IMG/VR virus record: IMGVR_UViG_3300011008_000125
Source: a virus
Strand: one strand, 5' to 3'
DNA: 47,741 bases
The notes under the pieces were generated by a model that did not search any database, had not been told where the DNA came from, and saw only the letters and a program-made list of their open reading frames with translations. The first letter of the stretch is position 1. Each line of letters begins with the position of its first letter. The translations under genes were made by a program, and so were the position numbers. Below, one piece after another: positions 16,932 to 47,217 of this stretch.

Positions 16932-17519
16932 TTACTTTAATTCCGTCTGCCAGTTCGGATGATCCTTGATATAGTTCATCTGATCCTGTGTGGAAAGTTT
17001 GCTGAAGTCTGCTTTGGTCATCGTGGTGGGCTTGTCATCAGCGCCGTCTGCCGGGGTTGCACCTTTAGGTGTTGCCGGTTTCGCCGGTTCTTCAAACAGG
17101 AACTTGCTGTCTTCAGCGGTCTGAAGCTTCTTAATCTGATCTGACAGACCCTTGATAGAACCGTCATCCGCAAATTCAGCCTTGTCCAGTCCTTCCAGAA
17201 GCGCACGGACGGCTTTGACGTTCTTTGCCTTTGCCACGGTCAGCGCAAGCTGCACAGCCGCGTCAACTTTTGCAGCCTTGTTTTCAGCCTGAAGCTGTTC
17301 AATCTGTTTGGTCAGTTCAGCGTTGTCACCGGCAGTCTTTTTCAGGTTTTCAATCTGTGTATCCCGGTCTTTCAGCTGTTCCTTCAGGTTGTCACGTTCC
17401 GTGGTGATGCTGGTCACGTCTGCCTTTGCCGCGTTGATGTCATTCCCGTTTTCCTTCATGATGGAATCAATCTGTTCAGCGGATAACACACCCATGTCTT
17501 CAAGAAACTTTCTTTTCAT
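16932..17519 (-). CDS. Scaffolding protein (GP20-like)
   Basis: 195-aa coiled-coil, charged protein: MKRKFLEDMGVLSAEQIDSIMKENGNDINAAKADV... Confidence 0.75.
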   Translation of the reverse strand: MKRKFLEDMGVLSAEQIDSIMKENGNDINAAKADVTSITTERDNLKEQLKDRDTQIENLKKTAGDNAELTKQIEQLQAENKAAKVDAAVQLALTVAKAKNVKAVRALLEGLDKAEFADDGSIKGLSDQIKKLQTAEDSKFLFEEPAKPATPKGATPADGADDKPTTMTKADFSKLSTQDQMNYIKDHPNWQTELK

Positions 17520-17611
17520 AGTTACCTACCGTCCTTTCTTACGCTTTTTACGGGGTTGCGTCCCATTGATTAGTTGGTCACCGGCTTTTTACGTCATCCG
17601 GGTCAGGACAA

Positions 17612-21491: not shown

Positions 21492-22820
21492 TCAATCAAA
21501 ACTGAATGTTTCACCCTTGCTGTCAGATTCATGCGCGTACCGCATAGCGTCCATCAGGTGGTTGAAATCATCAATAGGCACGTTCAGCTTTTTGCCGGTC
21601 TTTGAATCCGTGTCCCATGTGTAATTGCTGATTTCCGTCAGGAAGTTCACGCACCGTGGATGAACCACAATGTGGAAGTCCTGAAGGTAATCAATGCCGT
21701 ACTTGATGGAATCGCGTCCCTTCCGTGCTTTCCTGATGTGCTGCATACCAAGGTCACGCAAGCGGTCAATGCTTTTCGGTTCAGCGGAATCAGCCGTGAT
21801 CCGTTCCTTTGCGTACCCCATCCGGGCAACTTCCGCATATATGGCTTCATTGCTCATTCCGGGCTTATACATTTCATCAAAGACCCAAATGGTTTTACCG
21901 GGAATGTCCACCATGCCGCAATACAGCGCTGACGGGTCATTGGTATAACCAAAGTCCAGACCAAACCGGGTTTTGGCAACCTTTTTGACTTCATCAATGT
22001 CAAACAGCTTTTCTTCCCAATTTTCATAAATCAGACCTTCAACAATGCCCCACTCACCAAGACCGGCAACGCGGTAACGCCGTGGGTTCTGTTCTTTCAT
22101 GGTTTCAAACACCCGGCGGTCAGCATCATCCAGCCATTCATTACATGTGTAATTGGTGGTCAGCGCCATGATGTCAGGGTCAGTCCGGTCAAAGAACCGC
22201 GCCTTTATCCAATGGTGTTCATTCCACGGGTTGAAGGTCATGGTGATCTGCTTGAACAGCCCGTCAGGGACTTCACCACGGATGGATTCATCAAGCATGT
22301 CAAAATCAGATTCATGACTGATTTCATATGCTTCTTCAATCCACATCCAGCACAGCGCACCGTGTTCAACCGTGATGGATGTGACTTTTAACGGGTCATC
22401 CAGTCCCCGGAACAGGATTTTCTGACCGGTTGGTTTATAGGTGATTTCCAACGGGCTTTCTTTTGCATCCCACCATGCGTCAACCTGAAGCCTGTGAATT
22501 GCCCACTTCAGGTCAGTAAAACAGGAATCCTTCAACGTTCGGAAGACCTTACGCACAACCAGCGTGTTGGCTTCCGGGTACTTCATCATGTTCACGATGA
22601 TCCAAAGCGCCATTGTCTTTGACTTCTTTGAAGCACGGGAACCCTTACACACCCGGTAACGTCCTTTGAACCGCCAAAATGAACCGTAACCCTTGCCCAC
22701 ATAATCAGCAAGGTTGATGTCTATACGGTTACGCGTTCCAATACGTTGTGATTCTGGAAGGTAAAGATGCCGCTGATAATCAAAGACATATTGACTGCTA
22801 ATCCGCAAGTTGTTCTTCAC
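21492..22820 (-). CDS. terL: Terminase large subunit (PBSX/XtmB-like)
   Basis: 442-aa ORF. An N-terminal ATPase region (GSRASKKSKTMALW) and a C-terminal nuclease region are present. It overlaps terS. Confidence 0.85.
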   Translation of the reverse strand: MKNNLRISSQYVFDYQRHLYLPESQRIGTRNRIDINLADYVGKGYGSFWRFKGRYRVCKGSRASKKSKTMALWIIVNMMKYPEANTLVVRKVFRTLKDSCFTDLKWAIHRLQVDAWWDAKESPLEITYKPTGQKILFRGLDDPLKVTSITVEHGALCWMWIEEAYEISHESDFDMLDESIRGEVPDGLFKQITMTFNPWNEHHWIKARFFDRTDPDIMALTTNYTCNEWLDDADRRVFETMKEQNPRRYRVAGLGEWGIVEGLIYENWEEKLFDIDEVKKVAKTRFGLDFGYTNDPSALYCGMVDIPGKTIWVFDEMYKPGMSNEAIYAEVARMGYAKERITADSAEPKSIDRLRDLGMQHIRKARKGRDSIKYGIDYLQDFHIVVHPRCVNFLTEISNYTWDTDSKTGKKLNVPIDDFNHLMDAMRYAHESDSKGETFSFD

Positions 22821-23289
22821 CGGAAATCACCACCGGAATATTGACATTGACATCAAGTTTGTCATTCCACATACCTAAGTGTTTACCAAGCAGTTCAAGG
22901 GCTTTCAGTTTCGGTTCAAGTTTCACTTCACGTTCAATGCCGTCACCGTCTTTGGTTGGGAATGTCTTCACACGGACAGATTGAATTGCAGCCACGTCAT
23001 CAGTAGCAGCGTCTTCTTTCACCGTTGCTTCATCCATGTTGATAACGTCACCCGCATTCACAAAGGCAATTTTTGCCAATTCCAAAACAATGCGATCCTG
23101 ATTGACCCCGGTACGTTTTGACCGTTCAGCCATAGCCTTTGAAATTGCGGTCTGAATGCTAACATTCGCTAACATCCTTGAACCTTGTTCATTCGCAGTC
23201 TTTACAGAAAAACCGGCACGAATGGCTGCTTGTGTCGCATTCAAATCAATCAGATATTCTTCAACAAATCTTTTTTGTTTTTCAGTCAT
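22798..23289 (-). CDS. terS: Terminase small subunit (P27/Terminase_4-like)
   Basis: MTEKQKRFVEEYLIDLNATQAAIRAGFSVKTANEQGSRMLANVSIQ. The start was moved to the ATG at 23289, which has the RBS AGAAAGGGG. The longer track ORF runs through a 5' UTR hairpin. Confidence 0.85.
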   Translation of the reverse strand: MTEKQKRFVEEYLIDLNATQAAIRAGFSVKTANEQGSRMLANVSIQTAISKAMAERSKRTGVNQDRIVLELAKIAFVNAGDVINMDEATVKEDAATDDVAAIQSVRVKTFPTKDGDGIEREVKLEPKLKALELLGKHLGMWNDKLDVNVNIPVVISGEEQLAD

Positions 23290-23326
23290 TCCGCACCCCT
23301 TTCTGTAGATTTCCCCACAACGAAAC

Positions 23327-23364
23327 GCCGCCGGAAGGTGGGAGGATGCCACCAATCCGGCGGC
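23327..23364 (-). promoter_or_regulatory. GC-rich hairpin in the terS leader (possible attenuator)
   Basis: A 9-bp stem gccgccgga/tccggcggc encloses an inner ggtgg/ccacc stem, followed by a weak U-rich tail. Confidence 0.4.
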
Positions 23365-23386
23365 AGACATAAGCTGTTCCTTCAGA

Positions 23387-23478: not shown

Positions 23479-23916
23479 TCACTTAAGATAACCCAGCGGC
23501 GCATACTTTTCAGAAAACGCTTCAAGGGCTTCACCGTGCTTCAGCAAAATGGTACTGTAAGAATACCCGACTTCCGGCGCGGATTCTTTCAGCGTCTTAT
23601 ACTGCACATACACCTTAAAAAGAATCTGGATATACGCCGGGTCATCTAACCCTTGAATCTGTTCAATCACATGGTTCTTCAAGTCAACAAACCTGTCTAT
23701 TTCAGCGTTGATCTTCTCATCTAAATCAACGTACCGGGCAACGGCAGCGCCTAACCGGTCAGATGGTGACACCTGAACCTTATCCGAATCATACGTTATA
23801 GCCCTTTGCCCTGACGCGCTGTACTTCAGTTCTTCAAGTCGTTCAAGGTCTTGCTGTATCCGCACGTCAATGGCTTTCAGCTGTTCTAAATATTCCTTTG
23901 CAGTAAATTCCGTCAT
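23479..23916 (-). CDS. Putative late-gene transcriptional regulator (sigma-70 region 4-like / RinA-ArpU-type)
   Basis: 145 aa. It has an N-terminal coiled coil and a C-terminal HTH-like segment (YIQILFKVYVQYKTLKESAPEVGYSYSTILLKHGEALEAF). It is the first gene of the late operon. Confidence 0.45.
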   Translation of the reverse strand: MTEFTAKEYLEQLKAIDVRIQQDLERLEELKYSASGQRAITYDSDKVQVSPSDRLGAAVARYVDLDEKINAEIDRFVDLKNHVIEQIQGLDDPAYIQILFKVYVQYKTLKESAPEVGYSYSTILLKHGEALEAFSEKYAPLGYLK

Positions 23917-23934
23917 TCTTTCTTACCCCCCCCA

Positions 23935-24220
23935 CCGGGAACATGGTAGACGTTAGGTAGCTGTAAGGTAGACGTTAAAAAATTTTTGCCGCTACCCTGT
24001 TTCAGCCTTATTTCATGCGGGTTTGCGGCTTCAAGGTAGACGTGGTAGACGTTAGTAGCCCTATACTACTATATATTATTCTTTTTATATCTCATTTTCT
24101 TAATAATACTAATTACAAAAACTATATTATTAAGAACTTATGATTTACCGTCTACCACGTCTACCAACCGCATAAAATAAGGATTTTTTACCGCTACCGC
24201 AACCGCTACCACCGTCTACC
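23935..24220. repeat. Iteron locus 1: GGTAGACG octamers, AT-rich core, inverted CGTCTACC/CGCTACC octamers
   Basis: Forward copies lie at 23935, 23946 (degenerate), 23957, 24025 and 24034. The AT-rich core spans 24051-24138. Inverted copies lie at 24139, 24148, 24182, 24194, 24203 and 24213. Confidence 0.8.
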
Positions 24221-24366
24221 TACGTCTACCAAACCACCGTTTCAACCACGTCACCACCGAAATTCTGTACTGGAAGCAGCGCCCTGACCGCATCAGCTGA
24301 TAGATTCCAGTATTGCACGGATGGTCAAAGGGTGTTTTGTTCCTGTGTCTGCATGTTGCACACTGT

Positions 24367-25008
24367 TCATTCATCCCTGTCACCGTCCTTCTGGTTCAAC
24401 AGTATGAACATAAGCGGCAGATGCTTCAGCATGTCCACAAATTCATTCCATTCATCCAGCTTATGACCGGAACGCTGCTCAATCATGGTCACGGCGTTTT
24501 CATAGCTGAAGGTAACCGTGCGCTTCTGGTTGTAGGATGACGGCAGCAGCTGAATCATCTGCCACCAATGAACTTTCTTAATAGCCGCATCAGTTTCAGT
24601 GTTATATGCTTCTCTGTGTTCATTCAGTGAATCAATGATGTCCAGCAACAGCTGATAGCAATGTGCATCTGTCATGTGGTCATGGCTGAAGTCATCCGGT
24701 TCAAAGGGCTTTGCATGAATCTTGTGCATGGTGCTGCAACTGTTTGCCACGGTTCCAACCTTGTAGGTGTCAAATTCCTTCCACCAGTACAGCGGCGCTG
24801 TGATGTCACATGACACGAACACCTGACGTAAATACTTCCTGTGAACCGCGCCGCCGTTATACAGACGGCGCATCAGGTCACGGTCATTCTTTCCGATCTT
24901 GAAAATATCCGGGTCACTGTCTGACCGATCCCATGAATTCATAGGGTTCCGCATTCCCCTAAGTGCATGTTTCCATCCCCACACTTCACCAAGTTCAACT
25001 TTAATCAT
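24367..25008 (-). CDS. ThyX-like (flavin-dependent thymidylate synthase-like) protein
   Basis: 213 aa with WKHALRGMRNPMNSWDRSD...ITAPLYWWKEFDTYKVGTVANSCSTMH. It resembles phage Thy1-like proteins, but the canonical RHR motif is not seen. Confidence 0.45.
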   Translation of the reverse strand: MIKVELGEVWGWKHALRGMRNPMNSWDRSDSDPDIFKIGKNDRDLMRRLYNGGAVHRKYLRQVFVSCDITAPLYWWKEFDTYKVGTVANSCSTMHKIHAKPFEPDDFSHDHMTDAHCYQLLLDIIDSLNEHREAYNTETDAAIKKVHWWQMIQLLPSSYNQKRTVTFSYENAVTMIEQRSGHKLDEWNEFVDMLKHLPLMFILLNQKDGDRDE

Positions 25009-25756: not shown

Positions 25757-27649
25757 TTACCCCCTTATGAACACTTTCAAGTTCTTGCCGTTCACTTTCC
25801 GCTGAACCGACCTGAAGCCGGTTCTTTTGTTCAGCTGCTTGCTGAACACCGTGTTTGACATTGGCTGCATACCGTTGTCAGCACAGAATATCTGATACCG
25901 CCGGTACACTTCAGCCGTTGGCTGATTCAGGATGGTTCCGGCTTCATTTTCCTTCAGGAACCCAACCAGCGGGTTGTTTTCTTCTTCATATTCATCAAGC
26001 TGTTCCTGAACCTTACCTGACTGTGTGAATTCCTGATTTTCAATGACGCGCTGCAACCCGGCAACACCAAGCCTTATCAGGTATTCTGCCGCGTCCTGTT
26101 CCACAAGCTTATACTTAATCATTGCGTCATAGTCCGGGTCAGCCTTGCTGAAGGTGTGGTTGAACGGGATGATGACCAACCGCCTAAGTACAGCGCCGGT
26201 CTTGTCCCGCATCCGGGGTATATCGTTGGCGCTGAACAGCATCTTGACATACGGGTTGAATTCAAACGGGGTCATGCCCTTGTATTCACCCTTGATCCGG
26301 TTGCCGGTTGCCACCTTCTTGAACATTGCCACCTGTGACCCTTGCAAGAAATCATCACCGATGTCATCACCGATGTTGGCAAGCTTTCCAAAAATCATTG
26401 CTGTGTTGAAGCGGTCACCAAGTTCCTTCAGGTCAAGCGCGGCAATGTTCCGTTCACCAAGCACATTCTTCACCATGTCAAGGAACGTTGACTTGCCGTT
26501 TGCCCGGTCACCTGTCAGAATGAACGCCTTGCCCAATTCGTTGCGGCGGTAAAAGCAGTATCCAATGCATTCTTCCAGAAGTGACCGGATTGCTTCATCA
26601 CCGCAAGCAAGCTTGTTCAGCGTTTTGTCAGCAAGTTCACAGTACGCATCCGGCACATAGTCCCACGGTATCAGGTTGGTCAGCACCGTTTCCGGGCTGT
26701 ATGGCTGCATGGTTCCGGTTGTGATGTCCAGCACACCGTTCCTGAATCCGATGTACCGCGCATCTGACGGTTGCAGTTCATCAGCAATCAGCCGTAAATA
26801 CTTCATGACTTCATTGCGCTGTGTCTGCTTTAAGAATGGGATGGTCTGAATCATTTCAGCTTCAATCCGTTCCGGGTCTGAATCATACACGCCGTCACGG
26901 TATATATGCAGCTGGTCATTGATCTTCACCACATGACTGTTCTGCTTCATCCAGTGTGCGAACTTGTCAAACTGGAAGGTGCTGCCGATGAAGAACACCG
27001 GCTTTTGAAACGCGTCATCCCTAAGAATGGTTTCAAGTTCAGATTCTTCAAGCGGTTCCTTCAGCACATATTGGTTCATCAGCCGGATGCATTCACGGGT
27101 TTCTTCCACCGTCATGCCGTTGCCGGTCAGGGTTAAAATGTACTTAAACAGCGCGTCATTCCGTCCGTCCCCGGCTTCCATATCCACAAAATCAGCGGAT
27201 GTCTTGACCGGAATCAACCACTTTGGAAGTTCCTGATATTCCGCACCCGGTTCAATGTCCCATTCTATGAAGCGTTCCACGCCGCCAATCTTGATGACTT
27301 CATAGCTGGTTTTTGATCCCAGCTTAATGTCAGCCGTCAGACCGACCGCAAGCGGAACGTGCGTCCTGTTCCGGGTGACCGCGCCGGTCTTGTTCTTAAA
27401 CAGGAAGTGCTTTCCGCGTGTGGTCTGGTAGACGCGGCAGTTCAGCTGAAGCTGTTCAACAATGTTCATCAGTTTTTCAGCCTGTTCACCGTCATCTACG
27501 TCAATCAGGATGGTGTCATCAGCAAGCATCCCGGCATAACCGTCATAACCTTGCACCTGTTCAAGGGTACTGAACTGTGTACGCCCTCTAAGGGTTTCCA
27601 TGCTTCTTTTATCTTTAGTTCTGATATAACCTTTATACAGTGTTGTCAT
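25757..27649 (-). CDS. Primase-helicase (prim-pol N-terminus plus P4/D5-type SF3 helicase)
   Basis: ILIDVDD is in the N-terminal domain and the Walker A motif is LTGDRANGKST. The start was set at the ATG at 27649 (MTTLYKGY), which has a poly-G RBS. Confidence 0.8.
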   Translation of the reverse strand: MTTLYKGYIRTKDKRSMETLRGRTQFSTLEQVQGYDGYAGMLADDTILIDVDDGEQAEKLMNIVEQLQLNCRVYQTTRGKHFLFKNKTGAVTRNRTHVPLAVGLTADIKLGSKTSYEVIKIGGVERFIEWDIEPGAEYQELPKWLIPVKTSADFVDMEAGDGRNDALFKYILTLTGNGMTVEETRECIRLMNQYVLKEPLEESELETILRDDAFQKPVFFIGSTFQFDKFAHWMKQNSHVVKINDQLHIYRDGVYDSDPERIEAEMIQTIPFLKQTQRNEVMKYLRLIADELQPSDARYIGFRNGVLDITTGTMQPYSPETVLTNLIPWDYVPDAYCELADKTLNKLACGDEAIRSLLEECIGYCFYRRNELGKAFILTGDRANGKSTFLDMVKNVLGERNIAALDLKELGDRFNTAMIFGKLANIGDDIGDDFLQGSQVAMFKKVATGNRIKGEYKGMTPFEFNPYVKMLFSANDIPRMRDKTGAVLRRLVIIPFNHTFSKADPDYDAMIKYKLVEQDAAEYLIRLGVAGLQRVIENQEFTQSGKVQEQLDEYEEENNPLVGFLKENEAGTILNQPTAEVYRRYQIFCADNGMQPMSNTVFSKQLNKRTGFRSVQRKVNGKNLKVFIRG

Positions 27650-27669
27650 GGGTGTTACCCCCCCCACGG

Positions 27670-28167
27670 TTACAACAGCACCGCGAAGCGGTCAATTCTG
27701 TCTTTCATCCGTTTCCGGGATTCAAAATCATTCTTAGCATCACGCATTTCACGCTTCATGCGGTTCAGTTCTTCCTTAAATTCTTTCAATTCTTCATTGC
27801 GCTGTTCCAGCTGATTGCCTATGACCGCCCATTGCGGGTTGTTGCGCTTCAGCTTCTTTCTGTAGGCTTTCAGCTTGATGATGTAAGCAACAAGTTCATC
27901 CTTCTGCCGTTTGGCAAGGTTCACTTTGCTTTCCAGCGCCACATAGATGTTTGCTGCTTCCTTCTGTTTCGGTTTGTAGTCATCATTGAATTCTTCAAAG
28001 TATGCCTGAATCTGTTCAATGACTTCATCAACCTGTTCACTTTCCCTGACGCACTTAACCAGTTTCTTGAACTGTGCCGCTGTACAGTCTTTAAAAAACT
28101 GATCCAGATGCACCGTCATTTCACCCTTGCTTTCATGGTTCCATGAAAATTTAATTTCATCTGTCAT
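27670..28167 (-). CDS. Hypothetical coiled-coil protein
   Basis: The ORF was trimmed to MTDEIKFSWNHE, giving an ATGA overlap with the polymerase stop. Confidence 0.55.
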   Translation of the reverse strand: MTDEIKFSWNHESKGEMTVHLDQFFKDCTAAQFKKLVKCVRESEQVDEVIEQIQAYFEEFNDDYKPKQKEAANIYVALESKVNLAKRQKDELVAYIIKLKAYRKKLKRNNPQWAVIGNQLEQRNEELKEFKEELNRMKREMRDAKNDFESRKRMKDRIDRFAVLL

Positions 28168-30089
28168 ACACTCACCCCGAACGCCTTTAAGCGTTTTTTC
28201 ACCATATCTATGTACCATCCACGGTCAAGCCATGCCGGAACCTTTACCCCGTCCATTTTTTCATTCACCACCTTGCAGTGATCCGGGGTATTGCCGAACT
28301 TTTCAGGCTTTCCGCGCTTGCCACCGGCACGAAGCAGCCGCCCGTCATGAAGGTCATTGGAAGCAAACACCCGGTATGACTTATATGTGTACCTGTGCGT
28401 TTCCGGGTATTCATACCAATACTTGATGACCCTGACACCCTTCTGCCGCCGGACGGGTTCACACTGTTCATGTTCCACCCACTTGTAATTGTCTGACAAC
28501 TTGACCACCTTCTGAAACTGAATCAGGTCTTCACATTCATTGATGGTCTTTTCAACCGGCACACCGTGCGCCATGTATTCAACAAGCGCATTCCTGACTA
28601 TGGGCAAATCATTGTCCGTCCGGCTGGTTTCCTTCACATAGTCACCGCACCGTTCAATACCGCCGTCAATGTCCACCCAAAGGTAATTGTTCACGTCCTT
28701 CTGATAAATCTTTGCTATGCAGTCCAGCGCAAGCAGTATTTCACACTTGTCCGTGCTGCAACGGCATTCCCATTCATAACAGATGTCATCCAGCTGCCGG
28801 AACGCTTCATCAGTGTTTGGGACTTTGACAATCAGTCCGTCCGTGTTTGACTGAATCAGGATGAATCCGGGTATGGCTTCCAGATGTTCAATCAGGTCAA
28901 GCAGCATAAGCTGACCGTTGATGCACATACAGTTATTGTTCCGTGGGTCATATGCCGGGTTGGTTGCGTCCTTCATTGCCCCTGACAAGGCGTTCAGCAT
29001 CTTCTTATACGGCAGCTGTGCCTTTTTCCAATGCTTCTTTTCAGCCTTGTCCTGTGCCGCCTGTTGTTTCAGCTTCAGGGCTTTCCGGGTCTGGTACACC
29101 TTGTCATAATTCGTGTTGGTTGCCGATCTGGTTACCAAGTCCCACGCAAGCAGCATGGAAGGATAGTAGTTATTCACATCAACGTGGTATATAGCCCCTT
29201 CATAATGAACCGGCGTTGCAGCCGCACCGTGAAGACCGCCAAAACCAAAGGTGTGCGGGATACCGGCAACGTCCACGGTCAAAGACTGGTTGTAAAAATC
29301 CCTTTTTATCTGGAAGTCATCAACCGCAATCCCACGGTCACGCATGTCATAAATCGGCTGCATGGTGTACTGCATTTCCGTCCGCTTCTGTGCGAACCAT
29401 TCCACCACATGCTTATACTTTTTGATCCGCAAGCACGGAAGGAAAAAGAAATCAAATTCATCCGTGTACTTCTGCCGCTGACAACCCAGCACACGCGCCG
29501 TAATCCGGGCTTCAGAATCACCGATGTTGGAAAGGTTCACCTGATCCGGGAACGCCTGAACAATGCCTTGCATAGCGTTGAAATCATCTATCTTTTCCAT
29601 GAACACCTTTATGGTTTCTTCCACATCATGGGTGCAATAGAAGATGGTTTGTTCAATTTCTTCCGGGGTCAGCTTCCTGTCAATGTCAAAAGGCACTTCC
29701 GTTTCCCGGATGTCCGAACCAAGGAACGCTTCAAGGGTCTTCAGTCCAACCGGCGGGTTTGGCATGACATCATAGTTAATCATGGGTATCTGATTGAAAG
29801 CACTACTGAATTGCCACCCTTCACCGCCAAGAACAATGATGTAATCATTTATTTCTTTGGGATTCATCCCCAACAGGATGCCCTTGAAAATGTATTGGTC
29901 ATAGTGCTTGTTGTTGAAGCCCACCCAAATGCCTTTGCTGTTGGCTTCATAAAGTGCTTTCAGCCTTTCAGGGTCATTGACAATCACGTGCTTTTCTTCC
30001 TTGATAGGGTCAATGCCGACCGTCAGCCAATCGTATTTGAAAACTTCAAAATCATAAAATATCACGCCGTCACCGCCCTTCAGAAACAC
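28164..30089 (-). CDS. Family B DNA polymerase (phage type)
   Basis: The motif A-like sequence is HVDVNNYYPSML and the motif C-like sequence is QSNTDGLIV. An N-terminal exonuclease-like FYDFEV is present. The start is uncertain: either the GTG at 30089 or the GTG near 30068. Confidence 0.7.
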   Translation of the reverse strand: MFLKGGDGVIFYDFEVFKYDWLTVGIDPIKEEKHVIVNDPERLKALYEANSKGIWVGFNNKHYDQYIFKGILLGMNPKEINDYIIVLGGEGWQFSSAFNQIPMINYDVMPNPPVGLKTLEAFLGSDIRETEVPFDIDRKLTPEEIEQTIFYCTHDVEETIKVFMEKIDDFNAMQGIVQAFPDQVNLSNIGDSEARITARVLGCQRQKYTDEFDFFFLPCLRIKKYKHVVEWFAQKRTEMQYTMQPIYDMRDRGIAVDDFQIKRDFYNQSLTVDVAGIPHTFGFGGLHGAAATPVHYEGAIYHVDVNNYYPSMLLAWDLVTRSATNTNYDKVYQTRKALKLKQQAAQDKAEKKHWKKAQLPYKKMLNALSGAMKDATNPAYDPRNNNCMCINGQLMLLDLIEHLEAIPGFILIQSNTDGLIVKVPNTDEAFRQLDDICYEWECRCSTDKCEILLALDCIAKIYQKDVNNYLWVDIDGGIERCGDYVKETSRTDNDLPIVRNALVEYMAHGVPVEKTINECEDLIQFQKVVKLSDNYKWVEHEQCEPVRRQKGVRVIKYWYEYPETHRYTYKSYRVFASNDLHDGRLLRAGGKRGKPEKFGNTPDHCKVVNEKMDGVKVPAWLDRGWYIDMVKKRLKAFGVSV

Positions 30090-34194: not shown

Positions 34195-35533
34195 CTGTTA
34201 AATCCCTTCCTTCCTTCAATGCTTTTAGGTTCTTTACTTCAATACTGTTCTGTACCAGCGGATAGTAATAAAAACATGTCTGATCCTGACCAATCCTGTG
34301 CGTCCGCTTCTTTGACTGTTCCCATAGGTCACAGCTGCCTTTACCAAGCGGAAGCGTGAAATACACTGTGCGCCGTGCTTTCTGGAAGTTGCCGCCCATA
34401 GCACCCGCCTGATACTGAATGAAGGTGATGCTGTTGGATTCCTGTTCATAGGCGTTCAGGTCTTTGGTGCTGCCGTTCAGGATGCTGACCGGTCTGCCGA
34501 TTTCAGCGGCAATCCGCTTCAGGGCTTCCATTTCTGCCGTGAAGTTGTAGAAGACAATCAGCCGGTCTTCCGTGCTTTCAAAGATGTCCCGCATAGCTTT
34601 CAGCTTATCCTTGTGATACTGACCACACAGCTGCCGCGCATAAAGCGTTTTGGTCAGGTTGTTGTCACCTACCAGTTCCACCCGTGGTGTCACATCTTTA
34701 CCAAAGAAATCTGAATCATCATGGAATTCCTGAAAATTCATGGTGTCCAACATCAGGTATCCGCTGTCAATGAACCGCTTGTATTCTTTGGTAGGTTTCA
34801 ACATGATTTTCTGTTCAACCTGATCCGGCAGTGTCAGCACTTCTTCCGTTTTCTTGAACAGCGCACCATGTTCCGCAAGCTTCCGCTTCAGGTGGTCAAC
34901 GTTCTTATACCCGGTCACCACTTCCTGAAGGAACCCGGTTCCGTAATCCACCCAATCCGTGATGATGTATGACCCATAGAAAGCACGTTTTGAAATCTTC
35001 CAGCCCAACAGGTTGCACTGTGACCAAAGCTTTTCATATTTTCCGGCTGTTGGTGTGCCGGATAGAAGTATCACGCTTTCAGGCTTCATCTTCAGCACGT
35101 ACCGTGACCGCTTTGCCCGTTCATTGCTTATCAGTGAAGATTCATCCAGCATCAGGGTGAAGCCGGTCATATGACCGTAATATGAACGCCTGAACAACAA
35201 GTCATAATTGATAACCCCCACAATCATGCCGTCCGTGGTGATGCCTGATTCAGCGTGATTCTTGAATTCCATTGCTGACCGCTTCTTTGTCAGGTCAAAC
35301 GCCTGAATGTCAGGGTAATGGTCTGTGAAGTGCTGCAACCAGTCATCAATTTTGGATTTCTGACAGACAACCAGATTCACATAGTTGTTAAGCAGCCACA
35401 TCTTTTCAGACCCCATGAAGGTTTTCCCAAGACCCATATCATAAAAATATGCAACGTGGTTCTTGTCAGCTGTCAGGTCAAGCGCTTCAGCCTGATGGGG
35501 CATAAGCTTCAGCATATCCTGATTCCGGTACAT
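34175..35533 (-). CDS. SNF2-family helicase
   Basis: Motif I is DMGLGKT and motif II is MLDESS. A C-terminal helicase domain (HRIGQ) is present. Confidence 0.8.
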   Translation of the reverse strand: MYRNQDMLKLMPHQAEALDLTADKNHVAYFYDMGLGKTFMGSEKMWLLNNYVNLVVCQKSKIDDWLQHFTDHYPDIQAFDLTKKRSAMEFKNHAESGITTDGMIVGVINYDLLFRRSYYGHMTGFTLMLDESSLISNERAKRSRYVLKMKPESVILLSGTPTAGKYEKLWSQCNLLGWKISKRAFYGSYIITDWVDYGTGFLQEVVTGYKNVDHLKRKLAEHGALFKKTEEVLTLPDQVEQKIMLKPTKEYKRFIDSGYLMLDTMNFQEFHDDSDFFGKDVTPRVELVGDNNLTKTLYARQLCGQYHKDKLKAMRDIFESTEDRLIVFYNFTAEMEALKRIAAEIGRPVSILNGSTKDLNAYEQESNSITFIQYQAGAMGGNFQKARRTVYFTLPLGKGSCDLWEQSKKRTHRIGQDQTCFYYYPLVQNSIEVKNLKALKEGRDLTDDLFKN

Positions 35534-36708
35534 TCCCGGAAGATTTCAGCGTCAAAATTCGGCAGCGCCTTGATTTCATCACGGTCTTCATCATTCAGGC
35601 TGTCCCACCAAAGTTGTGCATTCTCTGATTCATCCAGCACTTTCATGTAACCTTCCGTGGTCTTATATTCCGGGTGTGCGTTCTTTTCATCATCCGTCAT
35701 TCTATAATCAGGAACCCATTCAACTACTTTTTTAGGAATCTTATTCATCAGGTAATATGCGCGGCTGTTCCACCAATCACGCAAAGTCCAGTCAGACGGT
35801 TTGTTGAACATGCTGATCTTTGGTTCAACAGTCATGAAGCATCCGTTATTAAAAGATGATTTGTTCCAGTCCCCGGTGTTCCTGTTCCCGGTGTTGCAGT
35901 TCCCGGTGTTGCAGTCCCCGGTGTTCCTGTTCCCGGTGTTCCAGTTCCCGGTGTTCCTGTTCCCGGTGTTGCAGTCCCCGGTGTTCCTGTTCCCGGTGTT
36001 GCAGTTCCCGGTGTTGCAGTTCCCGGTGTTCCTGTTCCCGGTGTTCCAGTTCCCGGTGTTCCTGTTCCCGGTGTTGCAGTTCCCGGTGTTGCAGTCCCCG
36101 GTGTTGCAGTTCCCGGTGTTCCAGTCCCCGGTGTTCCTGTTCCCGGTGTTGCAGTTCCCGGTGTTGCAGTCCCCGGTGTTCCTGTTCCCGGTGTTGCAGT
36201 CCCCGGTGTTCCTGTTCCCGGTGTTGCAGTTCCCGGTGTTCCTGTTCCCGGTGTTCCTGTTCCCGGTGTTGCAGTTCCCGGTGTTCCTGTTCCCGGTGTT
36301 CCAGTTCCCGGTGTTCCAGTCCCCGGTGTTCCTGTTCCCGGTGTTGCAGTCCCCGGTGTTCCTGTTCCCGGTGTTCCTGTTCCCGGTGTTCCAGTCCCCG
36401 GTGTTGCAGTCCCCGGTGTTGCAGCCTTTTTGTACTTCATCCCACGGGATTTCACGGATGATATGCAGCTTGTTGGTGCAATATTTAATGTTGTCATCTG
36501 TCACCACATCACCCAGCGCTTCAACTTCAGCAACCACCGTTTCATTCGGGTCATACGGATAAAAGTTGAACACTTGCGGCAGATGTTCACAAAAATGCAT
36601 TCCACGTTCACACACCCTTAAATCAACATCTTCAGTGAAGGTTTCACCCACCTGATACTGCTTATCACGGCATGTCCAATCTTTTTTAAATGCTTTATAT
36701 CCCTTCAT
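35509..36708 (-). CDS. Repeat protein: globular N-terminal domain plus 37 NTG(N/D)(R/C/W) pentapeptide repeats plus C-terminal domain
   Basis: 399-aa ORF. The N-terminus MKGYKAFKKDWTCRDKQYQVGETF resembles a widespread phage domain. The repeat block is encoded by the 15-bp array at 35866-36420. Confidence 0.8.
   Translation of the reverse strand: MKGYKAFKKDWTCRDKQYQVGETFTEDVDLRVCERGMHFCEHLPQVFNFYPYDPNETVVAEVEALGDVVTDDNIKYCTNKLHIIREIPWDEVQKGCNTGDCNTGDWNTGNRNTGNRNTGDCNTGNRNTGDWNTGNWNTGNRNTGNCNTGNRNTGNRNTGNCNTGNRNTGDCNTGNRNTGDCNTGNCNTGNRNTGDWNTGNCNTGDCNTGNCNTGNRNTGNWNTGNRNTGNCNTGNCNTGNRNTGDCNTGNRNTGNWNTGNRNTGDCNTGNCNTGNRNTGDWNKSSFNNGCFMTVEPKISMFNKPSDWTLRDWWNSRAYYLMNKIPKKVVEWVPDYRMTDDEKNAHPEYKTTEGYMKVLDESENAQLWWDSLNDEDRDEIKALPNFDAEIFRECTGIRIC
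35866..36420 (-). repeat. 37 x 15-bp in-frame tandem repeat array
   Basis: The plus-strand units are (cct|gca|cca)gt(t|c)cccggtgtt. The 555 nt divide into exactly 37 units. Confidence 0.95.
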
Positions 36709-36872: not shown

Positions 36873-37570
<698 letters not shown>

Positions 37571-40915: not shown

Positions 40916-40944
40916 ATACTACAACTATGTGGTCATAATGTCAA
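40916..40944 (-). promoter_or_regulatory. Early promoter: TTGACA - 17 nt - TAGTAT
   Basis: The minus strand reads ttgacattatgaccacatagttgtagtat. The -35 box is at 40939-40944 and the -10 box at 40916-40921. Confidence 0.6.
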
Positions 40945-40959
40945 CAAAAATTTAGAAAA

Positions 40960-40974
40960 AACTTTGTAAAAGTT
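40960..40974. promoter_or_regulatory. Candidate operator: inverted repeat AACTTT-GTA-AAAGTT between the divergent promoters
   Basis: Read directly: a 6-3-6 inverted repeat overlapping the -35 box of the repressor promoter. Confidence 0.3.
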
Positions 40975-41001
40975 GATTATGCGCCCACAAACTGGTATAT
41001 T
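40973..41001 (+). promoter_or_regulatory. Repressor promoter: TTGATT - 17 nt - (TGg)TATATT
   Basis: The -35 box is at 40973-40978 and the extended -10 box at 40993-41001. It is divergent from the early promoter. Confidence 0.55.
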
Positions 41002-41033: not shown

Positions 41034-41462
41034 GTGAAACAAACTGATGAAACAAGGGAATTTCTATCTGCTTTAGGCAAAACAATACAGAAGTACCGGA
41101 AAGCCAAAGGATTGACACAAGAAAAGCTTGCAATTCTGGTTGGGTCTGAATCGGAAAATGACCAAAGGTCTTTGATTTCAAAGATAGAATCAGGGAAACG
41201 AAACCCGGACGCTTTTTTATTGTCCCGTATCGCGTCCGTTCTGGATGTTCCAGCAACAACGCTGATGAATGAAGCGATGCATGTTCAGGATGAAACCAAG
41301 GTGTGTGAACTGTTTGAACGTTGCTATGGTAAAGACGCGTTCAAAGCTGTTCAGCTTTTCCTGAAGCTGGATGTTGATGACCGTGCTGATATTACTGATC
41401 TGATGATTAGTAAATTACGCCGTGAAAAATATTCAACACAAGACGGGTCAAAAATCGGATAG
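41034..41462 (+). CDS. CI-like repressor (XRE-family HTH)
   Basis: The ORF has a GTG start after a poly-G RBS. The HTH segment is GLTQEKLAILVGSESENDQRSLISKIESGKRNP. It is divergent from the early operon. Confidence 0.75.
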   Translation: MKQTDETREFLSALGKTIQKYRKAKGLTQEKLAILVGSESENDQRSLISKIESGKRNPDAFLLSRIASVLDVPATTLMNEAMHVQDETKVCELFERCYGKDAFKAVQLFLKLDVDDRADITDLMISKLRREKYSTQDGSKIG

Positions 41463-41490
41463 GGAATATCATCTATGTGGATTTTGAACC

Positions 41491-41660
41491 GGTAGACGGT
41501 AGACGGTAGACGTTGCTTTTTCTGATAAGCTTTCCATAATCAACTAAAAAAAGTATTTATTAAGAACCTGACTGTTTACATCTACCAACCGATACCGCCG
41601 CATGGTGTAAGGGTTTCAACGTCTACCTGAACCGCTACCTTACATCTACTAACCGATACC
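41491..41660. repeat. Iteron locus 2: 3 tandem GGTAGACG octamers, AT-rich core, inverted (C/A)(G/T)TCTACC / CGCTACC copies
   Basis: Forward copies lie at 41491, 41499 and 41507. Inverted copies lie at 41579, 41620 and 41633, with degenerate ones at 41643 and 41654. It shares the TTATTAAGAAC core and CTACCAACCG with locus 1. Confidence 0.75.
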
Positions 41661-41675
41661 AGAAAGGCAATAATC

Positions 41676-41951
41676 ATGAAAGAATATCAGACAAATGAAG
41701 ATGAAAGAAAATTCTTCACGGCTTTTTATTCCCTACTGACACCAAAACAACAGCAATCCATTCAGTTATACCGGATGTCAAACGGGGCTTATGAAGTAAC
41801 CTGTCATAAGGGCTATATTGGAAAGATCAAGCTTCAAGGTAGAAAACATTGGATTCAGGTGATGAAAAACACATATGATGCCGATGTGATAGAAGGTTGT
41901 GTTGATGATCTGATAAAAGAATTACCAAGGTGGGTCAAAACCATGAAATAA
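41676..41951 (+). CDS. Hypothetical 91-aa protein in the lysogeny module
   Basis: The ORF has the RBS GAAAGG and lies upstream of int on the same strand. Confidence 0.6.
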   Translation: MKEYQTNEDERKFFTAFYSLLTPKQQQSIQLYRMSNGAYEVTCHKGYIGKIKLQGRKHWIQVMKNTYDADVIEGCVDDLIKELPRWVKTMK

Positions 41952-41988: not shown

Positions 41989-42094
41989 AGGTGCAACCAA
42001 ATAACCAGTCAAGGAATGGATGAAAGGAATATTTGGACTATGCAGAAAGTATTATATCATTCCTTCCTTGAAATCTCAATGAAAGGAATGAACC

Positions 42095-43114
42095 ATGTCA
42101 CGAAGAAACCCGAACGGTTACGGATGTGTGACCAAGCTGAAGGGCAACCGGTCACGTCCGTGGGTGGTCAAGGTCACCGTCTATGACAGTGAAGGGAACG
42201 CCCATCAGCAAAATGTTGGATATGCGGCAGATGAAGCGGCAGCGCGTCAGATGCTTGCCGCCTACAACAATAACCCGTGGGACGCGAAACGCGAAACCAT
42301 CACGCTGGTTGAAGTGTTCAACCAATGGAAGGAACTAAAGCTTCCAAAAATGGAAAAAGGGTCACAACGCGCAATGCGTTCAGCGTTCAAGTATTGTTCA
42401 AAGTATTACGGCATGAAATACCGCGCACTGAAAACATTTCAGATGCAAGACACCATTGACAGCTGTGGTCACGGGTACAGCACCCAGCGCCAAATAAAAG
42501 CAATGTGGGGTCACCTTGACCGGTTTGCCTTTGAAATGGACATTGTTGACAAGATGTACAGCCAGCTGACCACAACAGACCCAATCACCGAATCAGGAAG
42601 AACACCCTTCACCCAAGAACAGATTGACGCGCTTTGGAAGCTGGAAGCCGCCGCCCCTGATCCGTGGGTTGAATCCGTCCTGATTTACATTTATACCGGC
42701 TTCAGGCTGTCAGAAATTCTTCAGCTTCCAATGGAACGGGTGAACTTTCAGGAATGGTACATCACAGCCGGGATTAAAACGGCAAACGGAAAGAACCGGA
42801 TTGTTCCGATCCATGACCGCATCAAGCCGTTCTTCACCGCCCGGAAAGATGACCCTTACCTTTTCACCCTGAATGGAAGGAAAATAGTGAAGTCCCAATA
42901 TTATGCGTTTTGGTATGAAGCGCTGAAAAAGATAGGTGCTGACAAGACACCGCATGAAGCGCGTCACACTTTTGAAACCCTGTTGGACAACGCCAACGGG
43001 AACCGGAAGTGTATTGATATGCTAATGGGTCACAAGTCCACGGACACCGGGAACCGGGTTTATAACCACAAAACCATTCAGCAATTACGGGATACCATAG
43101 CACTGTTAAAATGA
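42095..43114 (+). CDS. int: Tyrosine integrase
   Basis: TGFRLSEIL carries the catalytic R. The C-terminus HEARHTFETLL...LMGHKSTDTGNRVYNH matches the HxxR...H...Y pattern. Confidence 0.85.
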   Translation: MSRRNPNGYGCVTKLKGNRSRPWVVKVTVYDSEGNAHQQNVGYAADEAAARQMLAAYNNNPWDAKRETITLVEVFNQWKELKLPKMEKGSQRAMRSAFKYCSKYYGMKYRALKTFQMQDTIDSCGHGYSTQRQIKAMWGHLDRFAFEMDIVDKMYSQLTTTDPITESGRTPFTQEQIDALWKLEAAAPDPWVESVLIYIYTGFRLSEILQLPMERVNFQEWYITAGIKTANGKNRIVPIHDRIKPFFTARKDDPYLFTLNGRKIVKSQYYAFWYEALKKIGADKTPHEARHTFETLLDNANGNRKCIDMLMGHKSTDTGNRVYNHKTIQQLRDTIALLK

Positions 43115-43132
43115 TAAAATCAGCACTGAACA

Positions 43133-43323
43133 AGTAACAATTTAGTAACAAAGAAAGCCGGGAACGCCCATTTTACAAGCATTCCCGGCATTTATGATTG
43201 TATCATACCATAAATTTTTAGCAAAAATCTACCCTTTCATGGCTTGAAAAACCGCGTAAATTCAACATTTCGCGCCTTTACACGCTTGTGTTATCCTGTG
43301 CATTTAGTAACAAATTAGTAACA
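43133..43323 (+). promoter_or_regulatory. Putative attP region with two phased pairs of AGTAACAA repeats
   Basis: AGTAACAA occurs at 43133 and 43144, 11 bp apart. It occurs again at 43306 and 43317 (the last copy is AGTAACAc), also 11 bp apart. All copies have the same orientation and lie between int and the endolysin. Confidence 0.4.
43157..43189 (+). terminator. Possible int terminator hairpin
   Basis: The stem gccgggaa/ttcccggc has a 17-nt loop and a weak T-rich tail. Confidence 0.35.
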
Positions 43324-43326
43324 CGG

Positions 43327-45485: not shown

Positions 45486-45755
45486 TTACGACATGGATTC
45501 ATACAGTTCCGCAAGGGCAAGCTGTGTGTCAGTCAGGTCTGCTTCCAGCGCCGCGTTCCTGTCATCCATCATCTTGATGTATTCATCCTTGTCATACTGT
45601 GTCAGGGTGTATTCATAGCCGTCAAAACCGCCATCCTGATCTTCCGCACCGGCTTCATGCACCGGCTGGATGTCAGACGCAATCCAAACTGAATATTCAT
45701 CAATGATCTTCTGTTCAGGCTGCGTGTTGCTGCGTGTGTTCGGATACACTTTCAT
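45486..45755 (-). CDS. Small acidic phage protein (XkdW position)
   Basis: The ORF was trimmed to MKVYPNTRSN with the RBS AAAGGTGGGA. The C-terminus is ALEADLTDTQLALAELYE. It overlaps the RT 3' end by 41 nt. Confidence 0.55.
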   Translation of the reverse strand: MKVYPNTRSNTQPEQKIIDEYSVWIASDIQPVHEAGAEDQDGGFDGYEYTLTQYDKDEYIKMMDDRNAALEADLTDTQLALAELYESMS

Positions 45756-46911
45756 TTTGTTTCCCACCTTTCTTTTTCTTGATGTGGTCAAGATAGTATT
45801 TGTCAGCGTATGGCTGAACAGGTGCTATGTACTTTTCAGTCAGCCGGAAGCTGTCACAGTGTATGACCCACCCTTTGTATGACGCGACAGAACACCATTC
45901 TGAATAATTCATTTCCTTGCCGGATTCCACCTTGACGCGTAAGGCGGTCATTTTCCGCTTCAGGGAATCACACGTTGATTTCCTCAACAGGGTGTAATTC
46001 CTGAAAATGCGGTAACCAACAAAGTCAACACCACGGATGAATGACGGGAAAATCTGGTAATTGTCCTTGATCCGTAAGTTCAGGTTGGTCTTCAGGTACA
46101 AATTCATGGATTCAAGCAGCTGTTGCAAGCGTTCCTTGCTGTCTGCAAATACACAAATGTCATCCATATAACGGTAATAATGCTTTACGTGCATTTCTTC
46201 CTTCATCCAATGGTCAAAGCCTGTCAGGTAAAGGTTCCCGTCATACTGTGAAAAATAATTGCCTATGGGAATGCCCAAGCCGTCAATGAACTGTTCACCG
46301 TTGCGCTGAACAATGGTGATGGGCTTTCCGCATGACTTGTAAAACGCAATGTTTTCTTCTGTTGCCGGACATGTGCTGATGCTGTCAATGATTTCATCAA
46401 TCACGGAAAGCAACGCCGGGTCTTTATACTTGCGCCTGAACTGCTTCTTCAGGATGTCATGGTCAATGGAAGGATAGAACTTCTTACAGTCTATCTTCAG
46501 GCAATAAAGCATTTCTTCCGGGCTGTGATCCACGGCGCGGCGTAACTTCCTGAATGCGTCATGTATGCCCTTGTTAGGAATCGCACTGTAAGAATCTTCT
46601 GTGAAGTAATCAAGCAGTGTCGGTTCAATGACCTGAAGGATTGCCCATTGCGCGATACGGTCAGGAAAGAACGGAAGCTTGTATATTTCACGTTCCTTCT
46701 TACCTTCCACCTTTTTGAACATGCCATATTCTGACGTGCGGTAATACCCGGTTTGCAGCATCCATTGCAATGCCGCAAGGTAATATGCCGGTCTTTTCTC
46801 AATCAGTTTTACTTCCGCATACCAGCCTTTGCCTTTCTTAGCGTTTTTATATGCAAGCATAAGGTTGTCCATGCTGCATATCTTTTCAAATAAGAACCCA
46901 TAGCGTTTCAT
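45715..46911 (-). CDS. DGR reverse transcriptase
   Basis: The N-terminus is MKRYGFLFEKICSMDNLMLAYKNAKKGK. PIGNYFSQ is the DGR-type [I/L]GxxxSQ motif. YRYMDDICVFADS is the YxDD active site. A cognate TR/VR pair lies upstream. A GTG at 46923 is an alternative start. Confidence 0.9.
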   Translation of the reverse strand: MKRYGFLFEKICSMDNLMLAYKNAKKGKGWYAEVKLIEKRPAYYLAALQWMLQTGYYRTSEYGMFKKVEGKKEREIYKLPFFPDRIAQWAILQVIEPTLLDYFTEDSYSAIPNKGIHDAFRKLRRAVDHSPEEMLYCLKIDCKKFYPSIDHDILKKQFRRKYKDPALLSVIDEIIDSISTCPATEENIAFYKSCGKPITIVQRNGEQFIDGLGIPIGNYFSQYDGNLYLTGFDHWMKEEMHVKHYYRYMDDICVFADSKERLQQLLESMNLYLKTNLNLRIKDNYQIFPSFIRGVDFVGYRIFRNYTLLRKSTCDSLKRKMTALRVKVESGKEMNYSEWCSVASYKGWVIHCDSFRLTEKYIAPVQPYADKYYLDHIKKKKGGKQNESVSEHTQQHAA

Positions 46912-46923
46912 TTTTGTATGCAC

Positions 46924-47217
46924 TTCACCGAATCTTCAACAAGTCAGCCCTACGTGCTGACAACCTACAAACACAGTTTAGTAATTCAACCCGAAGGTCT
47001 TAATGTATTGGCAAGCGCCACGGCAACAGTTCCGGCAGTATATTTTAAACCGCCCACGTTTTCAGGTAGGTCTTACCGTGTAGGCGGTTTTGTGCATGTA
47101 CTAAGTGCCTGCTGATATTCCGATTACGATTACCCGAACTGTTATTCAAATTCAGATAGAACGTGCCTGATTTCGTGCCATTATTCCAATTCGTGCTACA
47201 TTTAACAACGTGCTATT
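46924..47217 (-). ncRNA. DGR template RNA (TR plus structured spacer up to the RT start)
   Basis: The TR is followed on the minus strand by aaaccgcc...ggcggttt/cacg...cgtg nested stems (47047-47090). A UUCG-loop hairpin (gaccTTCGggtt) and a gtcagc/gctgac hairpin follow. Confidence 0.6.
47099..47217 (-). repeat. DGR template repeat (TR)
   Basis: It gives a gap-free 119-nt alignment to the VR at an offset of 246. It is non-coding (TAG in the VR frame) and rich in AAY codons. Confidence 0.9.

Follow-up and report, generated by a model that had tools for sequence, protein, structure and literature searches.

The window, by which we mean the whole stretch of 47,741 nucleotides that was analysed, corresponds to a complete circular phage genome of 47,641 bp, with a 100-nt terminal direct repeat (1-100 is the same as 47642-47741). 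The phage is most likely a temperate, Lachnospiraceae-associated gut phage. No close match to isolated phages was found at the DNA level, and the best protein match to an isolated phage has 46% identity (Paenibacillus phage Wanderer); its relatives are integrated prophages in Lachnospiraceae genomes. These relatives were retrieved by means of the primase-helicase (80 viral contigs and 49 genome contigs) and by exact-protein look-ups, and single ones are denoted by handles such as L001 below.

Nearly all genes of the window are carried by the minus strand. The early, or replication, genes run on this strand from about 41,259 down to 24,367, and they encode an SSB-like protein, a Sak4-like annealase, an SNF2 helicase, a DNA polymerase (28164-30089) and a primase-helicase of 636 amino acids (25757-27667). 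The last early gene is the phrog_6721 gene (24367-25008), which is followed by a gap of 450 bp and then by the late operon, with a transcriptional regulator (23479-23916, phrog_36), TerS, TerL, a portal gene and others. Locus 1, the feature under study, is located in this gap; read on the minus strand, it comes after the phrog_6721 gene and before the genes of the late regulator and the terminase (from 23916 down). The gene context given in the initial annotation of this DNA, a 450-bp gap from the end of the early operon to the start of the late operon, is thus confirmed. The plus strand carries the genes of an XRE repressor (41034-41462), a 91-aa cargo ORF and a tyrosine integrase (int, 42095-43114). 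A second locus, called locus 2, lies between the repressor gene and int, and the divergent early and repressor promoters are found outside of it, at 40916-41001. The prophage contigs stop just past int, which places attP in 43115-43326. The features at and next to locus 1 are the following.

22798-23370, minus strand: TerS gene (Terminase_2), 0.5 kb from locus 1.
23945-23974, plus strand: left outer iterons, GGTAGACG at 23945, GGTAGCTG at 23956 and GGTAGACG at 23967, with 11-nt spacing and directed toward the centre.
23989-23996, minus strand: iteron in reversed orientation, reading GGTAGCGG on this strand; with it the left arm has six sites.
24006-24020, minus strand: left-arm spacer motif CCGCATGAAATAAGG, between the outer and inner iterons, kept in L001.
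24035-24051, plus strand: left inner iteron pair, GGTAGACG at 24035 and 24044, with 9-nt spacing.
24052-24148, no strand: AT-rich centre, candidate DNA-unwinding element, with TTATTAAGAAC at 24127-24137 beside the right arm.
24149-24165, minus strand: right inner iteron pair, CGTCTACC at 24149 and 24158.
24168-24182, plus strand: right-arm spacer motif CCGCATAAAATAAGG.
24191-24230, minus strand: right outer iterons, CCGCTACC at 24191 and 24203, CGTCTACC at 24213 and 24223.

Locus 1 as a whole (23945-24230) is a large imperfect inverted repeat with six iterons per arm, all of them aimed inward at the centre except for the one reversed site in the left arm. Each arm is composed of two inner iterons, a spacer with the motif CCGCAT-N4-TAAGG, and four outer sites. 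The inner pairs constitute an inverted repeat with 20-nt arms that are 95% complementary and 91 nt apart. The reversed iteron adjoins an A6T5 tract, and an equivalent reversed copy is present in L001. The motifs had been recognized correctly in the initial annotation but placed about 10 nt too low, and its count of five forward and six inverted copies is right as far as it goes, the reversed copy at 23989-23996 being an extra one in the left arm.

The k-mer count, which had been proposed as a check, shows that the octamers exist and are far more frequent than by chance. There are 13 exact matches to GGTAGACG on the two strands of the window, compared to 0.55 +/- 0.69 expected, and none of 100 shuffles reaches 13. 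Locus 1 holds eight of these matches and locus 2 another four, the remaining one being at 27427, while the relaxed form GGTAGMBG gives 20 matches compared to 3.2 expected, 18 of them inside the two loci. The copy at 27427, inside the primase gene, had been noticed before and is indeed present; it is coincidental, since L001 retains it unchanged even though all L001 iterons are a different octamer.

The spacer motif CCGCAT-N4-TAAGG occurs three times in the window, once per paralogous arm, compared to zero expected. It is unchanged in L001 despite the iteron switch described below, and AAGG..TTTCAA-like versions of the spacer are found in relatives down to 51% primase identity (L078, L013, L196). 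A host bending protein could bind it, or the initiator through another of its parts.

The centre of locus 1 is about 97 bp long and has an A+T content of 80-89% (85% for 24061-24141). Prediction of DNA unwinding, which had been put forward as a check, singles out this centre (24047-24147) as the least stable duplex of the whole genome, with a z value of 5.2-5.7 compared to 3.6-3.8 for the runner-up, i.e. as the strongest candidate in the genome. The cumulative GC skew, another proposed check for an origin, is monotonic and uninformative, because it follows the coding strand only. DnaA boxes are absent from both loci and not enriched in the window, the Rfam and tRNA scans gave nothing in locus 1 or locus 2, and a terminator scan of the gaps gave nothing convincing.

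Other repeats and elements are found nearby and elsewhere in the window. Immediately before the ribosome binding site of the late regulator there is a homopolymer at 23929-23936 (C8 on the plus and G8 on the coding strand; G9 in L001), which may be slippage-prone or assembly noise. The early region contains a (GT)17 dinucleotide microsatellite (37366-37399) and also a 15-nt tandem repeat of about 37 units (35862-36424) inside the minus-strand gene 35509-36708 (phrog_14105). This repeat encodes pentapeptides of the form N-T-G-x-x (Pentapeptide_2/DUF7666 in a relative), and such pentapeptide-coding repeats, which are also present in relatives (L196, 1452-2393), are able to mimic an iteron cluster in k-mer scans. 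In the late region, an Rfam GP20-b RNA motif (17540-17610, minus strand, 48.6 bits with a gathering score of 36.2) is situated directly upstream of the scaffolding protein gene (16932-17519, Phage_scaffold). A diversity-generating retroelement has its reverse transcriptase at 45715-46923 on the minus strand (RVT_1, E = 2e-17), and a pair of 114-nt repeats, 79% identical, adjoins this gene (47100-47213 and 47346-47459). The pair is likely to represent the template and variable repeats, of which the variable one would fall in the 3' portion of a tail-fibre-like gene at the end of the window. Around int, finally, AAGGAATG is present in three direct copies and one inverted copy just upstream (42010-42095), and TTAGTAACA in three copies in the downstream gap (43115-43326) where the prophage contigs stop; these repeats mark candidate integrase regulatory or arm-type sites and the attP region.

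We now turn to the primase-helicase, for which the relevant features are as follows.

25757-27667, minus strand: primase-helicase gene, proposed initiator; PriCT_1, D5_N, DUF5906 (SF3 NTPase) and a Pox_D5 C-terminus in Pfam.
25760-26011, minus strand: C-terminal domain, predicted winged helix, residues about 553-636, numbered from the GTG at 27667.

This protein had been described as being of the P4-alpha type, an assignment that is not upheld for the primase part. Pfam finds no Toprim domain in the primase-helicase, with PriCT_1 in its place, and we infer that the primase part is AEP-type. The sole solved homologue detected by sequence, and the closest solved relative, is SaPI5 PriRep5 (7OLA, E = 6.6e-39). 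The C-terminal domain alone matches the C-terminal domain of PriRep5 (E = 0.0023), and in the PDB sequence search the P4 origin-binding domain was matched neither by the full protein nor by the C-terminal domain alone.

The assignment of the C-terminal domain as a winged helix is a prediction to which several comparisons point. Sub-threshold RFX and Cdc6 winged-helix matches are obtained in Pfam for residues 583-628. A single-sequence AF2 model of residues 532-636 has a mean pLDDT of 74, and of 84-90 over the last 60 residues, and it displays a helix at 605-616 followed by a beta-hairpin (618-625 and 628-635). In Foldseek, this model is matched best by DNA-bound structures, the RFX DNA-binding domain and, on origin DNA, winged helices of Orc1/Cdc6; these matches are weak, with a best E of 0.05 and no match at E <= 0.001. 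The hairpin is exactly the patch that varies among relatives. That is, the last approximately 20 residues (25760-25828) are predicted to form the beta-hairpin wing, and they covary with the iterons.

This covariation is seen most directly in near-identical phages. Over window positions 27567 to 22700, the DNA of L001 and that of the window agree at about 99%, with the exception of three patches. The first one comprises the last approximately 54 nt of the primase-helicase gene, the second the middle of the phrog_6721 gene, and the third locus 1, where GGTTACGG stands in place of every GGTAGACG and the layout of the arms, the spacer motif and the centre are kept. The change in the primase-helicase protein is limited to the C-terminal approximately 20 residues, which read …NKRTGFRSVQRKVNGKNLKVFIRG in the window and …NKRLRTDVKVVKINGKVCRVFIRG in L001, and the two types of C-terminal domain end in …TGFRSVQRKVNGKNLKVFIRG and …LRTDVKVVKINGKVCRVFIRG, respectively. 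In the late regulator and TerS, L001 differs from the window by two residues each. Wing type and iteron type are concordant in 9/9 near-identical contigs that hold both, a number that represents few independent switching events, possibly a single one. The wing and ori patches in L001 could derive from one recombination tract, with a donor in which the intervening genes were identical.

The reverse situation is provided by L002, which has the wing and iterons of the window, yet shows only 61% identity in the late regulator and only 36% in TerS. In an exact-pattern search of viral contigs with GGTAGACGTGGTAGACG, the L002 contig was the only relevant match, the others being due to chance. The protein encoded by the phrog_6721 gene was considered as another covarying partner and rejected, as L002 has a third variant of its middle together with window iterons, and a 216-aa variant is also found with window-type iterons (L227, L228). 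This protein has a hypervariable middle (24526-24753) and is almost invariant in the rest, and its three versions (window, L001 and L002) are independent of the iteron type.

In the wider family, an equivalent of locus 1 is found throughout, just upstream of the late regulator, and the relatives have 9-14 iteron copies. The repeat unit varies by lineage (GGTAACGGTT, GGTTACGGTT, GGTAGCGGTT, GGTATCGGTT, TGTCTACGGT and others). Over 63 loci, nine of the 15 primase alignment columns most tied to the iteron class fall in residues 619-634, with AMI values of 0.48-0.63 compared to a protein mean of 0.09. The weakest column association is that of TerS, with a maximum AMI of 0.32. Clusters of the C-terminal 76 residues give an AMI of 0.67 and a homogeneity of 0.93 relative to the iteron class, while the values for 11 other protein segments, one of which comprises primase residues 1-560, are 0.32-0.55 and 0.49-0.87, respectively. 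Across about 65 relatives, the iteron class follows the primase C-terminus best among the proteins tested, a result that is supportive rather than decisive because lineage structure alone gives AMI values of 0.3-0.55 for unrelated proteins. Each of the more distant homologues in Clostridia genomes (43-70% identity) has an iteron array of its own, which in some follows the primase gene directly and in others precedes the late regulator. In one distant relative, L196, what looked like a second iteron cluster was discarded, being the coding pentapeptide tandem repeat mentioned above.

The cassette of locus 2 (41491-41660) is paralogous to locus 1, has the same orientation in the genome and is 17 kb away from it. 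It consists of the following elements.

41491-41512, plus strand: left arm, three overlapping GGTAGACG with 7-nt spacing.
41513-41578, no strand: AT-rich centre, predicted to unwind less readily than that of locus 1 (z about 3, rank 3-7).
41579-41660, minus strand: right arm, paralogous to the locus 1 arms and aligning with them, including the spacer motif.
Sites in the right arm: GGTAGATG at 41579, GGTAGACG at 41620, GGTAGCGG at 41632 and AGTAGATG at 41643, plus copies of CCGATACC.
41598-41612, plus strand: spacer motif of the right arm, CCGCATGGTGTAAGG.

Here the initial annotation was accurate, both in the coordinates and in the architecture common to the two loci. The asymmetric core and the flank that it had reported for both loci, in the same orientation, were also recovered. 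The core, TTATTAAGAAC, is present only at 24127 and at 41557 (to 41567) in the window, compared to zero expected, and is located beside the right arm at both loci in the same genome orientation; the flank, CTACCAACCG, is at 24161 and 41582.

A cassette of the same layout follows the repressor or cargo gene in 57 of 64 integrase-linked loci, and in all 11 genomes in which both loci are readable the iteron class is identical at locus 1 and locus 2. Among 25 distinct relatives of the GGTAAC type, the noncoding locus 2 cassette, including its AT centre, is more conserved than the flanking coding DNA. Contigs with a 100% identical repressor carry either GGTAGACG (L217, L236) or GGTTACGG (L216, L218-L222) at locus 2. 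In one of them, L220, the integrase is 99.7% identical and the iterons are GGTTACGG, only 41484-41947 of the window being replaced. The repressor and the integrase are excluded as specificity partners, since the identical repressor and the 99.7% identical integrase occur with both iteron types. Judged by these natural variants, all four of TerS, the late regulator, the repressor and the integrase are dissociated from the iteron type. In contig pairs from the same sample, wing and locus 1 of the L001 type go together with GGTTACGG at locus 2, and a wing of the window type with GGTAGACG at locus 2; the members of these pairs are separate contigs and not one molecule, and the link between wing, locus 1 and locus 2 types that they provide is suggestive.

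The segment 41484-41947, i.e. locus 2 with the cargo gene, is seen to be exchanged as a cassette between identical repressor and near-identical integrase genes (L216, L220, L236). The cargo is a 91-aa ORF, an ORF of 112-114 aa, or a pair of ORFs of 87 and 112 aa, and the 112-aa cargo occurs with either iteron type.

On the basis of these comparisons, we consider it probable that locus 1 is a replication origin of the type used by SF3 self-loading primase-helicases (SaPI Rep/PriRep, P4 alpha), and that locus 2 is a cassette for the same protein. The proposal in the initial annotation that the primase-helicase binds the octamers at two separated origin-type loci is therefore favoured on comparative grounds, namely the wing/iteron co-switch, the 11/11 matched classes and the unwinding centre. 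More broadly, the comparisons that argue for it concern architecture, enrichment, paralogy, low duplex stability, protein homology, wing/iteron covariation at both loci, and dissociation from the other DNA-binding proteins. The weaker unwinding element and degenerate right arm of locus 2 suggest that this locus has an auxiliary role, as a secondary origin or a crr-like partner.

Among the other explanations, the one that survives best, although we regard it as unlikely, is that the arrays are mainly transcriptional control sites, for the late operon to the left of locus 1 and for the cargo/int operon to the right of locus 2. Both loci are indeed directly upstream of operons, and the AT centre of locus 1 contains weak sigma-70-like matches (4 compared to 1.4 expected). 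However, the shared asymmetric core has one and the same genome orientation in locus 1 and locus 2, and the operons next to them point opposite ways, which disfavours the core as a promoter of these operons. In addition, the late regulator remains unchanged when the iterons change, the lysis/lysogeny promoters are elsewhere (40916-41001), and the architecture fits an origin and not an operator. The binder of such control sites would possibly be the primase-helicase itself, for example in a coupling of late transcription to replication, a scenario that is compatible with origin function.

Less probable is a function as centromere-like or handcuffing sites by which an extrachromosomal prophage would be maintained, or its copy number controlled, in the manner of a plasmid. 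Plasmids are known to use iteron handcuffing, and two clusters of short repeats around a core do resemble centromeres of the parC/tubC type. Against this, the scan of early and lysogeny proteins, which took in part of the small ORFs, yielded no partition NTPase or centromere-binding adaptor, i.e. nothing like ParA, ParM, TubZ or ParB; the phage has an integrase and its relatives are integrated prophages in Lachnospiraceae; and the iteron specificity tracks the C-terminal domain of the helicase. Pairing of locus 1 and locus 2 mediated by the initiator, on the other hand, would be compatible with the origin explanation.

A packaging site (cos/pac) for the small terminase at locus 1 is more improbable still. 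Repeated boxes around a bendable AT-rich segment resemble cosB/pac sites, a likeness that locus 1 shares, and the TerS gene is 0.5 kb downstream. However, TerS is 98% identical in L001, with its two substitutions, where every iteron is different, and 36% identical in L002, where the iterons are kept; its column association with the iteron class is the weakest, as given above, and a second copy of the array is present 17 kb away in the lysogeny module.

The least credible explanation is that the arrays are XRE repressor operators or arm-type (attP-like) sites of the tyrosine integrase, which the position of locus 2 between the repressor gene and int could suggest, but which is contradicted by the 100% identical repressor with GGTAGACG or GGTTACGG at locus 2, by the 99.7% identical integrase of L220 with GGTTACGG, by two repressor classes that share one iteron class, and by an attP at 43115-43326 with its own TTAGTAACA repeats. 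The alternatives named in the initial annotation, a regulator array for the late and int operons (taken as bound by the late regulator or the integrase) or recombination sites, are in this way each dissociated from the iteron type by natural variants.

Returning to locus 1 as an origin of the primase-helicase, the events that we infer from the comparisons, i.e. binding, melting, the hexamer stoichiometry and initiation, along with a role of locus 2, would proceed as follows. The winged-helix C-terminal domain would recognize the iterons of 8-10 nt (tGGTAGACGt), with the beta-hairpin wing fixing the specificity. By analogy with SaPI Rep, one hexamer would assemble on each arm, the fit to the six sites per arm being our own suggestion. 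Upon binding of the arms, the AT-rich centre of about 95 bp would melt, the helicase would load itself, the N-terminal primase would prime, and the phage DNA polymerase (28164-30089) would extend. Locus 2 would be bound by the same protein and would most likely act in cis in replication, as a second, weaker origin or as a partner similar to P4 crr.

It is also possible, although we hold this only tentatively and with more doubt than belief, that this widespread family of temperate Lachnospiraceae phages carries two complete, co-evolving origin cassettes in direct orientation that bracket the early region, that the second one is functional, and that the different types have been made by exchange of the approximately 20-residue wing and of the iteron patches at both loci. 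If this is true, the second cassette might be an origin for another mode of replication (e.g. in-situ prophage replication), a crr-like looping partner, or a replication-coupled switch for cargo and int, and the patch exchange of the wing and all iterons would constitute a natural, readable code for wing-to-DNA recognition.

For a large uncultivated group of Lachnospiraceae prophages of the gut, represented here by hundreds of contigs and about 50 genomes, the analysis provides an origin prediction and a named candidate initiator. The swap pairs on backbones that are about 99% identical make the recognition rule of an SF3 self-loading initiator testable with two proteins and two DNAs. The duplicated, co-evolving cassette conserved in the family also bears on the question of why there are two sites per initiator, which has so far been studied mainly in P4.

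It is instructive to compare the proposed origin with known systems, the closest of which is that of the SaPIs. SaPI Reps are self-loading helicases with a C-terminal winged helix that recognizes the iterons (PMC9371898). Their origins, for example those of SaPI1, SaPIbov1 and SaPI5 (Ubeda et al. 2007, 2012, cited in PMC9371898), have an AT-rich centre flanked by 6-12 iterons, of which two or more lie on either side, in opposite orientation (PMC9371898). Binding and melting by the SaPI Rep are ATP-independent, and two hexamers have been proposed to load, one on each side (PMC9371898). The phage shares with SaPI Rep/PriRep a putative initiator that is an SF3 helicase-primase fusion with a predicted C-terminal winged helix, about 12 short iterons in two opposed arms around an AT-rich centre (12 sites in locus 1, six per arm), an iteron specificity that, by the comparative evidence, is matched to the C-terminal domain, and an origin downstream of the initiator gene on the same strand. 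There are also differences. The phage iterons are 8-10 nt long compared to 5-6 nt in SaPI, and between the primase gene and the array, which lies 1.5 kb further downstream, there are four small genes, while the SaPI origin follows immediately; in several distant relatives of the phage the distance is +0 to +400 nt. The phage arms are bipartite, with two inner and four outer sites separated by the conserved spacer motif, a second complete cassette is present 17 kb away, and the element is a full temperate Lachnospiraceae phage rather than a satellite. Apart from the distance to the gene, locus 1 fits the SaPI description, and as judged by sequence it is a predicted origin of the SaPI/P4 type.

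In phage P4, the alpha protein is reportedly a multifunctional primase-helicase with a C-terminal winged helix that works on octamer repeats at ori and crr, as Ziegelin and Lanka in 1995 and Yeo et al. are said to have described. The occurrence of the same octamer iterons at two loci kilobases apart, with one primase-helicase that has a (predicted) winged helix, is common to both phages. However, the primase of P4 alpha is of the Toprim type while the present protein has PriCT_1, and P4 crr is a pair of direct 120-bp repeats, whereas locus 2 is an inverted-arm cassette with an AT-rich centre of its own. By its layout, locus 2 resembles a second, full origin cassette more than a direct-repeat pair of the crr type.

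In iteron plasmids such as R6K, where the gamma origin operates with alpha and beta, one initiator acts on separated sites that communicate by looping. The phage resembles them in having iterons at separated sites and one putative initiator. The initiator family is unrelated, however (Rep/pi compared to an SF3 helicase), the phage loci have no DnaA boxes, and a host helicase loader is not implied. The kind of origin proposed here is already known, and it comes with a conserved duplicated cassette and clear natural swaps of wing and iterons.
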